Assembly (NCBI GenBank): GCA_030614005.1
Contig: JAUWKS010000004.1
Coordinates: forward strand, 83,438-115,437
Reading direction: 5' to 3'
Source: Candidatus Heimdallarchaeota archaeon
Lineage (GTDB): Archaea > Asgardarchaeota > Heimdallarchaeia > JABLTI01
DNA length: 32,000 bases
Position numbers and translations under genes: made by a program. The notes beneath the pieces were generated by a model. The model searched no databases, had not been told where the DNA came from, and saw only the letters and a list, made by a program, of their open reading frames with translations. Below, one piece after another: positions 7,004 through 11,263 of the stretch (position 1 is its first letter; each line of letters opens with the position of its first letter).

Positions 7004-7933
7004 TTATCGCGGAAGGTCTAAAGGATAAAGGTCTCCAACCAGTTTTCTCAAGTTAAGATGTTCATCATTCATTGAATTAGCATTATATAATACATTTCTT
7101 GCAATTTCAATAGCTCTTTGAATGGGGTCAGTATTACCCATTAAGAATGCAATAACATGAGATTTTTCTTTTACAAAAACTACTTTGTAATTTGCAATTT
7201 CAATAACTTCTTCACCAGTACCATAAATACGCATTGTTCGAGAAAAAACACGTGCTTTTCGTCTTAATTCCCTAAAAGCAGTTAAAAGCAAAATATTTGG
7301 GTTGTCAACAAATAATGCTTCGAAGGTTCGATCAGTTTCTTCGTCTAGAATTAGTGAAGCTCTAAGTTCAATATAATCTATTATTCGTTCTTTTTGTTTG
7401 AAAAGAGATTTATTCAACCATTCTCCAATTGCATATAATCCTTCTCCAGTTTGAGAAGAAAATTTGAAAAGATCACATTCACATTTATTTCGATCCAATT
7501 TTATCAAATCGAGTTGTTCTAGTAGTTCGTTTACTGGAACTGAAGATTTATGATCTGATTTTGATGCTAGAACCAGCATTTTAATTGGAGAGTTAAATTC
7601 GACTACATCTATTATAAGTTGCCTGATTTTTTCAAAAACTGATGGATCAGTTGAATCCACTAAAAAAAATAATGCATCAGCACCCAATATTGAGCGTTTC
7701 CATAATGACTTATATTGAGGTATATGATCTTTCAAATCCCAAGTAGTTAGTGTTAAATTATCAACAGTATGATACTCCAGTTCGGAAACAGCAGAAATCG
7801 AACCGTGCAAAAATTCTTGTGATTGAATTATTCTTTTTACTAATGATGTCTTACCTGAATTAGTTAAACCGATTAATGCAATAGAAACTTTAGTTTCAGA
7901 TTTTGAGATTATTCCTTTTATTGCAGACATCAT
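7004..7933 (-). CDS. Arf/Sar-like small GTPase domain fused to a C-terminal roadblock/longin-like domain
   Basis: P-loop GLTNSGKT; WDL...YKSLW...GADALFFLVDSTD; G4 SKSD; G5 FSSQTGEG. The extra ~125 aa have a strand-helix-strands-helix pattern; the fold of this part is inferred. Confidence 0.78.
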   Translation of the reverse strand: MMSAIKGIISKSETKVSIALIGLTNSGKTSLVKRIIQSQEFLHGSISAVSELEYHTVDNLTLTTWDLKDHIPQYKSLWKRSILGADALFFLVDSTDPSVFEKIRQLIIDVVEFNSPIKMLVLASKSDHKSSVPVNELLEQLDLIKLDRNKCECDLFKFSSQTGEGLYAIGEWLNKSLFKQKERIIDYIELRASLILDEETDRTFEALFVDNPNILLLTAFRELRRKARVFSRTMRIYGTGEEVIEIANYKVVFVKEKSHVIAFLMGNTDPIQRAIEIARNVLYNANSMNDEHLNLRKLVGDLYPLDLPR

Positions 7934-8020: not shown

Positions 8021-8048
8021 AAAAATAATTTGGAGGGATTAGTCCCTC
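8021..8048 (-). terminator. Terminator-like hairpin plus T-tract after the Pro-rich protein gene
   Basis: Minus strand GAGGGA-CTAA-TCCCTC followed by CAAATTATTTTT, starting 12 nt after the stop codon at 8060. Confidence 0.45.
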
Positions 8049-8059
8049 TATTTTACTAG

Positions 8060-9016
8060 TTACTCTCGAGTTTCTTCACTCATGAATTTCTTCAATCGTG
8101 CTAATTCTCTCAGCATTTCCATTCTCAGACCACTTATACTTTGGCCATCGCCATCACCAGTTGGTGCGACAGGAGCTGTTGTAGGTGCGGCAGGTGTGGA
8201 CGTAGGAACAGGGGGAGGAGCCATATTTGATGTAGTGGGAGGAGCTATTGGGGAAGAGGAAGGTAATTTTGGTGGTAATGGAGGTGTTGAAACTATTGGA
8301 GGCGCTACGCTAGGAGGAACAACAGTTGTTGGTCTAGCGGTTGCGGATACAGGTGGAATTCTTGGGGGAGTAGGAATTGGTGAAGATGGTTTTGATGGGG
8401 GAGTGCCCAATGAGGGAGCTCTAGGAGGACCTATTGATGGAATACTTGGAGGACCAGTAGTTGGGGGGGCAGGGACACCAGGTACGCGGGGGGCAGTTGA
8501 AGGAATGCCGGGAGTACTTGAGGGAGGAGGTGGTATTGAACTTTGTCCAGTACTTGGAGCAATTTCGCCTCTTACTCGATCTCTTGATTGTTCTAAACTA
8601 TCTGCTAAAGATTTATATTCTTGAGCGCCAGATCTGCGTTTCAAATCAGTATCAATTTTTGCAATCCGAGCCTTATACCTATTTGCTAATGAATCACGAA
8701 TACTAGAACTAATTCTTTTAGATTTTCGTGCGTCTTTAACAGCAGACAAAGCAGTGCTTGCTGCAACGCGTTCTATTTGTAAAATAGCCATAACTTCTTT
8801 TGGATCTGCATTTGGTGCAGTTTCTTCACTCATCGGTTCAGATGATGCCAGAGCAGCTAAAGCAGAGACATCAACGCCTTTCTTCTTTCTCGAAGTTAGT
8901 ATGAAAATTATTATTATTACAATCACAACTAGCAACCATGCTAGCGAAATAAATATTACTGTGTTCCAAAAAAGACTTATTGTTGTAATTATATTAAAGA
9001 AATCTGCAATTGCCAA
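8060..9016 (-). CDS. Single-pass membrane protein: helical domain, proline-rich region, C-terminal amphipathic helix (function unknown)
   Basis: Hydrophobic segment at aa ~15-41 followed by RKKK; about 48 Pro in ~133 aa; ends SGLRMEMLRELARLKKFMSEETRE; TTG start. Confidence 0.85.
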   Translation of the reverse strand: MAIADFFNIITTISLFWNTVIFISLAWLLVVIVIIIIFILTSRKKKGVDVSALAALASSEPMSEETAPNADPKEVMAILQIERVAASTALSAVKDARKSKRISSSIRDSLANRYKARIAKIDTDLKRRSGAQEYKSLADSLEQSRDRVRGEIAPSTGQSSIPPPPSSTPGIPSTAPRVPGVPAPPTTGPPSIPSIGPPRAPSLGTPPSKPSSPIPTPPRIPPVSATARPTTVVPPSVAPPIVSTPPLPPKLPSSSPIAPPTTSNMAPPPVPTSTPAAPTTAPVAPTGDGDGQSISGLRMEMLRELARLKKFMSEETRE

Positions 9017-9319: not shown

Positions 9320-9670
9320 TCAACTTTCTTTGACAGGAGGAAATCGAAGGTTGTTTTTGATCATTTTTTCTGTTACAACTTCAAATATATCAATATCAAG
9401 TGTGCGTGCTAGACTTACGGTATAAATAATTATATCTGCAATTTCGTCTTCAATTTCAGTCATTAGTTTCTTACTTGTTGTAACTTCTAGAGCAGAAGGA
9501 TTGATCCATTGGAAAATTTCCATTAATTCCGCAGCTTCAATGGATATGGACATAGCAATATTTTTGGGCGTATGATATTCTTTCCAATTTCTTTCTTCTA
9601 AGAATTTGTCCAGTTTTCTTTTCAAGTATTCGAATTGATCATTTGATTTCTCTGAAGTCAATAAATTCAC
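9320..9670 (-). CDS. MazG-like nucleotide pyrophosphohydrolase (DCTPP1/RS21-C6 type)
   Basis: RNWKEYHTPKNIAMSISIEAAELMEIFQW...EDEIADI, the all-alpha NTP-PPase EXXE...EXXD motif; GTG start. Confidence 0.88.
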   Translation of the reverse strand: MNLLTSEKSNDQFEYLKRKLDKFLEERNWKEYHTPKNIAMSISIEAAELMEIFQWINPSALEVTTSKKLMTEIEDEIADIIIYTVSLARTLDIDIFEVVTEKMIKNNLRFPPVKES

Positions 9671-9708
9671 TCCAGTTTATGATTGAGCTACCAAAAAGAT
9701 AAAAACCC

Positions 9709-9727
9709 TTCCCTAACCTTTAGGGAA
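9709..9727. promoter_or_regulatory. 8-bp inverted repeat TTCCCTAA-CCT-TTAGGGAA in a divergent intergenic region
   Basis: Exact dyad between the divergent MazG-like and Nop2/RsmB starts. Confidence 0.35.
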
Positions 9728-9753
9728 AGTAGGTAATAACAAAGGTGAATTAA

Positions 9754-10716
9754 TTGGTTTCAATTGAAGCAGAAAAATTAGCTAAGAAATTTGGTTATTT
9801 AAAAAGTACCATTGAAAGGTTTATCGCATCTTTTGGTTTAACTGAAACGGAAAAAATGTTAGAAGCATATGAACTGAAACCTCCTTCAACAATAAGAGTA
9901 AATACATTGAAGATTTCTGCTACAGAATTAAATGAAAAACTAACGAGTAAAGGTTTCAAACTCATACCTAGTGAATGGTATGCTAATGGATATGTTGTTA
10001 CAAACGAACCCTTTTCTTTGGGAGGTACAACAGAATATCTTTCAGGATATTATTTCATTCAATCAAAAGCATCTTGGTTACCTGTATTATTACTTGATCC
10101 AAAACCAGATGAAACTGTTATCGATATGGCAGCTGCACCAGGAGGAAAGGCAACACACATAGCCCAATTAATGAATAATACGGGCACACTTTTTTGCCTT
10201 GACATCTCCAGAGAACGAATAAAATCTCTCCGTTCAAACCTTGGAAGATGTGGAATAAAAAATGTTATTTGTAAACGAATGGACGCTCGAGATATAGGTA
10301 ACCTAAATCTAAAAGTAGATAAAATTCTTTTAGACGCACCATGTAGTGGTGAAGGTTTAATGGCAATTGATAAATCTAGAAGAACTGCAAGAAATGAAGA
10401 AGATATTGCTCGTATGGCAGATTTACAAAAACAATTGTTCGAAGCAGCTCTAAAGGTTCTAAAAAAGGATGGTGTTATTGTTTATTCAACTTGTTCTACA
10501 GCACCTGAAGAAAATGAAGAAATTATTGATGAAATGCTGAAACAATATAATTTGGTTATTGAGAAGACAGAACTAGGTAATTTTAGTTCTGGCTTAATTT
10601 CAGTGCAAAATAAAACATACAGCAAAGATTTACTGAAAGCAATTAGGTTGTATCCACACTTACATAAAACTGAAGGGTTTTTCGCATGCAAACTTAGATA
10701 TTTAGGAGAAGGATAA
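9754..10716 (+). CDS. RsmB/NOP2 family RNA m5C methyltransferase
   Basis: DMAAAPGGK SAM motif, DAPCSGEG (motif IV), YSTCS (motif VI), PEENE, C-terminal GFFACKL. Confidence 0.95.
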   Translation: MVSIEAEKLAKKFGYLKSTIERFIASFGLTETEKMLEAYELKPPSTIRVNTLKISATELNEKLTSKGFKLIPSEWYANGYVVTNEPFSLGGTTEYLSGYYFIQSKASWLPVLLLDPKPDETVIDMAAAPGGKATHIAQLMNNTGTLFCLDISRERIKSLRSNLGRCGIKNVICKRMDARDIGNLNLKVDKILLDAPCSGEGLMAIDKSRRTARNEEDIARMADLQKQLFEAALKVLKKDGVIVYSTCSTAPEENEEIIDEMLKQYNLVIEKTELGNFSSGLISVQNKTYSKDLLKAIRLYPHLHKTEGFFACKLRYLGEG

Positions 10717-10717
10717 A

Positions 10718-11263
10718 ATGGCAATTATTTTTAGAAAATTAAATCAAATAGAGGAAGAGCAATTAGATAAGGAACTATCTTATTGGATCTCAGAAGATAA
10801 CAAACAGCGATTATATCTTGAGAACAGATTTATGGTTGGGGAAGGTAATTGGAGAGAACTATTCATAGTTAATCCTACAACATATGAGCTAGTAATTAAT
10901 GATGAAATGATTTCACCCTATAGTGTTGGATTGGGATTTGGAGAGTACAAGAAATCAGGTCTTTTATTAAGTTTAGGCGGTGCGGGTATTCTCTGCAACC
11001 AAACTGAAATAAAAGCAGTATTAGTAGATGAAGCTGAACAGCTCTTTCTTTTCAAGAGAGATATAATATCAACATCTATTTCACAAATAACAAAAAAGGT
11101 GAACATAGGAGATAAAGTAATTGTTGTAAACACAAAGAACGAATTTTTAGGTGTTGGAAAACTAGAACAAATTTTGGATGATATCATAAATCATAAGGAT
11201 ACAAGAAGTATTGCACTAAGAAATATCATTGATCTAGGGTGGTTTCTTCGAAAAGGAAAATAA
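10718..11263 (+). CDS. NIP7-like / PUA-domain ribosome biogenesis protein
   Basis: AEQLFLFKRDI, GDKVIVVN...FLGVG and C-terminal DLGWFLR; 1 nt after the Nop2/RsmB gene, a common archaeal pairing. Confidence 0.82.
   Translation: MAIIFRKLNQIEEEQLDKELSYWISEDNKQRLYLENRFMVGEGNWRELFIVNPTTYELVINDEMISPYSVGLGFGEYKKSGLLLSLGGAGILCNQTEIKAVLVDEAEQLFLFKRDIISTSISQITKKVNIGDKVIVVNTKNEFLGVGKLEQILDDIINHKDTRSIALRNIIDLGWFLRKGK

Follow-up and report, generated by a model that had tools for sequence, protein, structure and literature searches.

What does an Asgard archaeon do with a membrane protein whose long proline-rich arm ends in a nearly invariant helix? The question is raised by the stretch of DNA analysed here (the window), 32,000 nucleotides of contig JAUWKS010000004.1 (positions 83,438 to 115,437) from Candidatus Heimdallarchaeota archaeon, in which an open reading frame (ORF) on the minus strand (8060-9016, TTG start, 318 aa), confirmed as real, encodes the protein that we call the adaptor. 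A reading made from the letters alone (the sequence-only reading) had taken it for a membrane-anchored recruiter in the cytoskeleton or in membrane remodelling, with a C-terminal helix resembling WH2, VASP or MIM1 elements. Our analysis shows that the adaptor is the Heimdall-type, membrane-anchored member of an undescribed pan-Asgard family, and makes it a plausible, as yet unproven, connection of the Asgard actin system to the membrane.

Asgard archaea are the closest archaeal relatives of eukaryotes and have eukaryote-like actin, profilin and gelsolin; a factor nucleating, elongating or anchoring actin is central to models of how protrusions and the engulfment of partners arose in the archaeal ancestor of eukaryotes. 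No factor that nucleates, elongates or anchors Asgard actin at membranes is known, and an actin-assembly machinery using polyproline is still reported as undiscovered (PMC9433394). Akil et al. stated that filament-nucleation machineries recruiting profilin-actin through polyproline are yet to be found in Asgard archaea, and Survery et al. described polyproline proteins as widespread in Asgard genomes, with nothing further on them.

A pan-Asgard family without a Pfam domain

A search of 5.8 billion proteins returned 45 matches to the adaptor, 43 of which are family members (E 1e-69 to 1e-162), most of them full length (302-330 aa) and all either unnamed or labelled hypothetical. The named records are nearly all metagenome-assembled genomes (MAGs) of Heimdall or other Asgard archaea, save for a few MAG records with evidently wrong labels and some metagenome names that are uninformative. 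Pfam and NCBIfam recognised no family in the adaptor or in 18 relatives, single matches to Vps23_core and CCDC53 did not recur, and full-text literature searches yielded no paper describing the family.

In the alignment of 25 homologues, 57-92% identical to the query, I294-E315 is invariant save for one position, bearing out the expectation of the sequence-only reading that the last ~25 residues would be conserved; the helical hairpin that follows the membrane anchor is also highly conserved. With the whole-protein profile, weaker matches extend across the Asgard phylum, many of them limited to the proline-rich arm and the helix. The end helix shared across the phylum reads (S)I(A)xLRxEMLxELxRLKK(F/I/Y/L)M and is preceded by a proline-rich tract, and both its hydrophobic face and its charged positions are retained across the Asgard classes.

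To map the phyletic range, the core motif LRxEMLxELxRLKK was back-translated to a DNA pattern and scanned against one genome per species of 185,579 bacterial and archaeal species. At least 119 stretches were found, and every one listed encodes this type of protein. In 117 of the 119 listed matches, a tract of 23-40% Pro leads up to the motif, which stands 5-10 residues short of the C-terminus; in the other two, masked bases hide the sequence ahead of the motif. The adaptor has the motif at L297-K310, followed by 8 residues to the C-terminus, and 34-35% Pro in the tract ahead of the helix (residues 153-293), compared to at least 23% in the family. All record titles of the listed matches are Asgard, including the cultured Promethearchaeum syntrophicum MK-D1, with the exception of two contigs, DATKTW010000083.1 (L065, Nanopelagicaceae MAG) and WJJB01000146.1 (L060, Bathyarchaeota MAG). 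Both encode typical Loki-type members and are probably mis-binned; the Nanopelagicaceae contig carries Loki-type neighbour genes as well. The restriction to Asgard archaea that the sequence-only reading had anticipated is thus seen throughout the listed matches.

A profile of the 45 C-terminal positions matches 294 of 399 Asgard genomes (70 of 90 if only those of high quality are counted) and 68 of 85 genera. Most genomes have a single match, and the adaptor gene is single-copy in its own genome. The motif is absent from the genome families f23-f25 in the profile search. When the same profile was compared with longer proteins, it gave 339 matches, the best 120 of which have no Pfam domain and are, where named, nearly all Asgard.

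Three unrelated heads carry the arm and helix. A single transmembrane (TM) segment with a hairpin is found in the lineage of the adaptor (f1), f3, f5, f28 (Borr) and f33; a hairpin combined with a polytopic membrane domain (about ten TM helices) in f6; and a coiled coil, N-terminal in soluble proteins of 205-257 aa, in the Loki families f19 and f20, in Odin, in f26 and probably in f13 and f14. This distribution points to the arm and helix as the working end of the protein. The polytopic form (for instance L037:754-2448 (-) and L221:809-2191) occurs in 1-3 copies per f6 genome, and its membrane domain has no Pfam match.

Taken together, the proline arm and the LRxEMLxELxRLKK helix define a pan-Asgard family without a Pfam domain; new within it is the TM-anchored form, paired with a degenerate Arf-like GTPase of its own. 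The family is nearly universal in Asgard archaea and absent elsewhere, exists in soluble, single-pass and polytopic versions, is carried in its soluble version by the cultured MK-D1, and keeps its helix about as strongly as actin is conserved.

Topology and a candidate partner of the terminal helix

The sequence-only reading had deduced a cytoplasmic body from an N-terminal TM segment followed by RKKK. The sequence, a hydrophobicity scan and the AlphaFold2 (AF2) model all agree with this arrangement, and the underlying charge bias extends to the family: among 25 TM-type relatives from different lineages, the mean number of Lys and Arg residues is 0.5 before the TM segment versus 3.6 in the 15 residues past it, so that the N-out/C-in topology is a consistent property of the family. 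As the soluble relatives carry the same arm and helix with neither signal peptide nor TM segment, the module works in the cytoplasm. The proline/Ser/Thr composition of the arm is like that of archaeal surface-protein stalks, and an extracellular glycosylated stalk was the topology that the sequence-only reading had named as fatal to its proposal; given the strong and consistent opposition of the positive-inside rule and the existence of these soluble homologues, such a stalk is extremely improbable.

The AF2 model of the adaptor, built on 25 homologues, accounts for the helical domain of ~80 residues noted from the sequence as a hairpin at residues 72-152, with helices at 72-98 and 104-152 and predicted local distance difference test (pLDDT) values of 80-89. 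The terminal helix spans residues 295-317 (pLDDT 84), while the arm (153-293) has pLDDT values below 50-60. Residues 160-292 amount to 133 aa with 35% Pro, close to the ~133 aa and ~36% first estimated, and PPPP, PPLPPK and APPPVP all occur in the protein. Several short blocks are kept within the arm across the alignment of 25 (TPGIPxTAPPVPG, SPIPTPPKIP, VVPPSVAPPTISTPPLPPK and APPTTSDMAPPPVPT), which is unusual for a linker. Compared with 48,161 PDB chains, the model matched only generic helical hairpins (Z 8.5-10.4), under the threshold for helical folds.

We tentatively regard the adaptor as a tether in the cytoplasm, with an end helix that docks on a conserved partner, possibly and, among partners, most likely an actin-family protein. 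The single TM segment anchors the protein N-out/C-in, with the basic hairpin beside the membrane and the remainder in the cytoplasm, and the disordered arm of ~140 residues would let the terminal helix reach out. By docking on a very conserved cytoplasmic partner, the helix would bring this partner to the membrane. An actin-family protein would receive the helix in its hydrophobic groove, in the manner of arcadin-2, ParR and WH2-type helices. The proline arm may contribute further contacts, weak and multivalent, to profilin for instance. In f1, the tether is probably regulated or assisted by the degenerate Arf-like GTPase whose gene lies downstream.

Across the classes, heads and arms have diverged beyond recognition and the helix, charged positions included, is almost unchanged. 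Its conservation, its presence on three unrelated heads and its cytoplasmic location suggest that the helix is a docking peptide whose partner is a highly conserved protein of the cytoplasm. Canonical Asgard actin, which is 72-83% identical across most of the phylum, has the conservation that fits the partner of such a helix. Gene context adds to this. In the Loki family f20, 65 of 92 soluble-type loci have a co-oriented gene of the actin family downstream. Where the sequence continues for 2.6 kb or more past the gene, this holds for 46 of 56 loci, and four of the ten others are TM-type gene fragments. The actin-family neighbour is a paralogue, 40% identical to canonical Asgard actin; it scores 297 bits on the Actin hidden Markov model (HMM), and the canonical gene, which these genomes encode at another site, scores 441 bits. 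The actin paralogue is the only recurrent cytoskeletal neighbour of the family, and the position of the f20 soluble relatives just upstream of it lends the actin connection indirect support. In the motif-less f23-f25, actin is far more divergent (51-55%), and f24 and f25 are also without gelsolin.

The f20 gene and the actin paralogue are separated by 126-290 bp in some loci and by about 900-1000 bp in others. In the latter, the space is occupied by a PIG-L/LmbE-type deacetylase gene (PF02585, 1e-23; L059:3588-4334 (+)), seen in about 44 other loci, all on one strand.

Several observations weigh against an actin partner. The adjacency is restricted to one Loki family, f20, where a topoisomerase-like gene and a histidine kinase beyond the actin paralogue are also syntenic; since these further genes keep their order and the deacetylase often intervenes, part of the adjacency is inherited gene order. 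The MK-D1 lineage does not have it (the two genes are 100 kb apart), and no actin gene is nearby in any of 25 TM-type loci. No WH2 or other actin-binding family was detectable by HMM searches or by comparing the helix profile with PDB sequences. Neither was the helix found fused to gelsolin or to a known actin-binding domain, among the best 120 of the 339 profile matches and 10 extended gelsolins, the latter ending after a proline linker in a beta-rich or Zn-ribbon domain and not in this helix. Among Asgard profilins, most show weak binding to polyproline or none (PMC8410842). Finally, the f23-f25 pattern probably goes back to a single evolutionary event, and it is confounded with how far these families are from the sequences behind the profile; as one of these families (f24) has Snf7 genes, the phyletic comparison does not discriminate between the hypotheses.

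As to the actin genes of the lineage itself, a canonical actin (about 448 bits) is present in 9 of 11 f1 relatives and absent from the 90%-complete assembly of the adaptor, which holds two divergent actin-like genes only (L040:1294-2457 and L041:1408-2715, 122 and 169 bits).

A bolder version of the tether proposal sees in the family the missing Asgard actin-assembly factor or actin-membrane linker, with the helix binding an actin/Arp-like groove, the arm feeding profilin-actin and the Heimdall form being switched by the GTPase; we consider it rather unlikely. If true, the Heimdall form would be the first membrane-embedded actin organiser known in archaea, and a prokaryotic forerunner of GTPase-controlled actin assembly at membranes. 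Even with a partner other than actin, the target of the helix would be a conserved, Asgard-specific interaction hub.

Alternative partners and known systems

In the WH2 consensus, a three-turn helix is followed by a break and then by LKK(T/V) in extended form, and, counting from the Leu, hydrophobic residues stand near -10, -9, -6 and -2. The adaptor has them at -11, -7, -6 and -3 from the Leu of its LKK, its helix is predicted by AF2 to continue unbroken from 295 to 317 through LKKF, and PF02205 (WH2) gave no match at E<=1 for the adaptor or 18 relatives. On these three grounds, the WH2 identity offered by the sequence-only reading is rejected. The MIM1 consensus is (D/E)xxLxxRLxxL(K/R). When the adaptor is aligned to it on L305, L308 and K309, the defining Arg is replaced by the invariant E304 and the acidic position by R298, so that a canonical MIM1, a motif described in Asgard archaea (PMC7240154), is rejected as well and the suggested MIM1-like helix does not hold. 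Pfam detected no Snf7 domain, EVH1 domain or EVH2 tetramerisation coiled coil in the adaptor; with Ena/VASP it has just the proline-rich middle in common. The CdvA coiled coil (PF18822), which in CdvA accompanies a PRC barrel, gave a sub-threshold match in one relative (E 5.7e-4, L028) and none in 11 other members including the adaptor, and the CdvA filament 9s9g matches the adaptor model at Z 9.1, amid many generic hairpins. Comparison of the helix profile with PDB sequences returned nothing significant (best E 0.48; GCN4 zipper, NEVARLKKL, 0.7).

Against this background, an MIT-interacting motif, which would turn the protein into a CdvA-like membrane recruiter of Vps4 or ESCRT-III, is improbable. 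Three hydrophobic residues and a basic one (M301, L305, L308 and K309) do suit the MIM1 spacing, the arm contains proline-rich MIM2-like stretches, the genome of the adaptor encodes MIT-domain proteins, and the hairpin resembles those of ESCRT-I, CdvA and Snf7, only at generic Z values of 8.5-10. The altered residues at E304 and R298 speak against it, however, as do the CdvA match that did not recur, the lack of any ESCRT gene in the neighbourhoods examined, and f24, which has Snf7 genes yet no motif. Self-association would instead make the helix a short coiled coil, of the kind found in the Ena/VASP tetramerisation domain or a leucine zipper, and the protein a membrane scaffold or spacer with the arm as an intracellular stalk. 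Near-invariant surface charges (R298, E300, E304, R307 and K309) are unusual for a simple homo-oligomer, there are just ~1.5 clean heptads, and the module is unchanged on three different heads; yet the hydrophobic stripe is spaced 3-4-4-3-4 over five turns, the soluble forms also have an N-terminal coiled coil, and because the nearest weak look-alike is the GCN4 zipper, not significant as it is, such a role keeps some probability and we rate it as doubtful.

The remaining alternatives look for the partner elsewhere. An anchor with a long flexible linker and a conserved terminal peptide is a general tethering design, and the family's neighbours outside f20 are not actin-related (rpiA, V-ATPase subunit D, Ras/Arf GTPases), both of which would agree with docking on another Asgard-wide machine in the manner of ZipA or of tethers that use the FtsZ C-terminal peptide, be it a member of the tubulin/FtsZ family, a part of the translocon or ribosome, or a regulator of small GTPases. 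As the gene context yields no specific candidate of this kind, with the actin paralogue as the sole recurrent cytoskeletal neighbour, we consider this unlikely. Distinctly unlikely, too, is that the adaptor is the membrane receptor or anchor of the Arf-like GTPase, as Ragulator/LAMTOR1 is for Rag, with helix or hairpin binding the C-terminal domain of the GTPase. In f1, a homologue of the GTPase gene lies 125-170 bp downstream on the same strand in every genome examined, and the pair is intact even where the upstream neighbours differ; the synteny proposed by the sequence-only reading is strict within this lineage. A C-terminal domain predicted to be well folded and a degenerate switch II, suggesting a scaffold-like role, would also suit an anchored GTPase. 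Outside f1, however, no such Arf-like GTPase was found near family members, the C-terminal domain is limited to f1 plus one weak match among 200 Asgard genomes (single-sequence query), and a terminator-like hairpin lies between the two genes. With the GTPase link lineage-specific and the helix pan-Asgard, the GTPase cannot be the general partner of the helix; a contact, if any, is more likely with the lineage-specific hairpin, which at most could provide it.

Several known systems share the layout of the adaptor. Closest to the proposed actin tether is arcadin-2 of Pyrobaculum (PDB 5LY3), in which a core and an unstructured linker are followed by a conserved 17-residue C-terminal helix that makes the partner contact by itself and binds the hydrophobic groove of crenactin, beside which arcadin-2 is encoded (PMC5173319). 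The likeness is one of layout: both proteins have a small conserved C-terminal alpha-helix on an unstructured linker, and the f20 relatives of the adaptor are likewise encoded beside an actin homologue. Arcadin-2 differs in being soluble and in having a linker that is neither conserved nor proline-rich, and its groove binding is experimentally demonstrated, whereas that of the adaptor is only proposed; moreover, the adaptor gene itself adjoins a GTPase gene and not an actin gene.

With the Ena/VASP and WASP-family proteins, the adaptor shares the succession of a targeting head, a proline-rich tract and a short basic amphipathic helix ending in LKK-hydrophobic, and the variation of heads on a constant working end. 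In contrast to them, it has no HMM match to WH2, to the VASP tetramerisation domain or to EVH1, its hydrophobic spacing is three residues shorter than that of WH2 and its predicted helix continues through LKK; in addition, the profilins of Asgard archaea differ in their weak or lacking affinity for polyproline. ZipA of gamma-proteobacteria has a bitopic N-out/C-in anchor, a charged domain, a long Pro-rich flexible linker and a C-terminal FtsZ-binding element. The order of parts is the same in the adaptor, where the C-terminal element is a putative partner-binding one, but ZipA ends in a globular FtsZ-binding domain and not in a single helix, lacks sequence similarity and has another phylogenetic range. 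ESCRT-III proteins with MIM1 and crenarchaeal CdvA also recruit a partner through a C-terminal helix or peptide past a flexible linker, and their hairpins are alike at a generic level; the adaptor departs from them by the reversed charge at key MIM1 residues and by giving no Snf7 or CdvA match in the domain searches and having no ESCRT context.

Organisation of the locus and the downstream GTPase

The elements of the adaptor gene and of the GTPase gene that follows it are collected in Table 1.

Table 1. Positions of the features of the adaptor gene and the downstream GTPase gene in the window
Feature	Position	Strand	Remarks
N-terminal 16 residues (TTG start)	8969..9016	-	no K/R, net charge -1; predicted outside the cell
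Single TM anchor, residues ~17-41	8894..8968	-	AF2 helix 15-43 (pLDDT ~90) and hydrophobicity scan
RKKK basic cluster, residues 43-46	8879..8890	-	directly past TM; sets N-out/C-in topology
Short conserved helix DVSALAALASS, residues 49-59	8840..8872	-	D49, L53 and L56 invariant; AF2 helix 50-57
Basic helical hairpin, residues 72-152	8561..8803	-	net charge +8; strongly conserved in the lineage
Disordered proline-rich arm, residues 153-293	8138..8560	-	34% Pro; alignment and AF2
C-terminal amphipathic helix ISGLRMEMLRELARLKKFMSEE, residues 294-318	8063..8137	-	near-invariant; bears the family motif LRxEMLxELxRLKK
Terminator-like hairpin and T-run	8033..8048	-	12 nt past the adaptor stop codon; consensus match only
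GTPase gene	7004..7933	-	
GTPase G domain	7394..7933	-	degenerate G3 (WDLKDH) and G4 (SKSD)
GTPase C-terminal domain	7007..7387	-	beta-beta-alpha-beta-beta-beta-alpha-alpha order, longin/roadblock-like topology

The GTPase encoded directly downstream of the adaptor belongs to the Arf family (PF00025, 6e-18), and the closest structures to its G domain are HodArfR1 of an Asgard archaeon (Z 21.9) and human ARL10B/ARL8 (Z 21.6). Its degenerate motifs replace DxxGQ in switch II and NKxD in G4, and one orthologue is even without the P-loop Lys. The C-terminal domain is predicted with a pLDDT of ~90, and its Atlas lead is Roadblock/MAPKK1_Int, with a score of only ~0.8. Judged by these sequence features, the GTPase is probably hydrolysis-impaired and a lineage-specific partner or regulator. 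Two papers that deal with the Arf GTPases of Asgard archaea are silent on this neighbour. The genome of the adaptor has two paralogues of the C-terminal domain (G000:C35 and G000:C49), the C35 copy with canonical YDLGGQ and NKID motifs.

The intergenic hairpin reads GAGGGA-CTAA-TCCCTC and is followed by a T-run (z -1.26); going by its consensus match, it may end or attenuate transcription ahead of the GTPase gene. Upstream of the adaptor, a block at 9320-11263 of the window (MazG-like, RsmB/F-type methyltransferase, NIP7/UPF0113-like and FKBP26) is syntenic in several relatives (L002, L004 and L005); in L003 it is replaced by TFIIB and others, with the pair of adaptor and GTPase genes unbroken.

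Two further protein types were encountered around the family. Divergently upstream of the soluble form, a conserved ORF of ~91 aa (FIKRVYEIVNELKIPLIDERVY...FYIPH) is present in 62 Loki loci (for example L031:4369-4644 (+)) and also in a distant family (L034:2861-3157); it gave no Pfam, PDB or Atlas lead. Two-domain gelsolins of f6 (probably Hodarchaeales) and one of f5 have a proline-rich or EAKRK-repeat linker (L205:622-1857, L206:1232-2491, L208:613-1812 and L207:115-1725) and end in a conserved, unassigned beta-rich domain of ~90 aa (YKLYYVDGEF...RQARGICKAGF). None of the sequencing runs listed in a search for the locus is RNA; the runs that contain its DNA are marine-sediment and cold-seep metagenomes.

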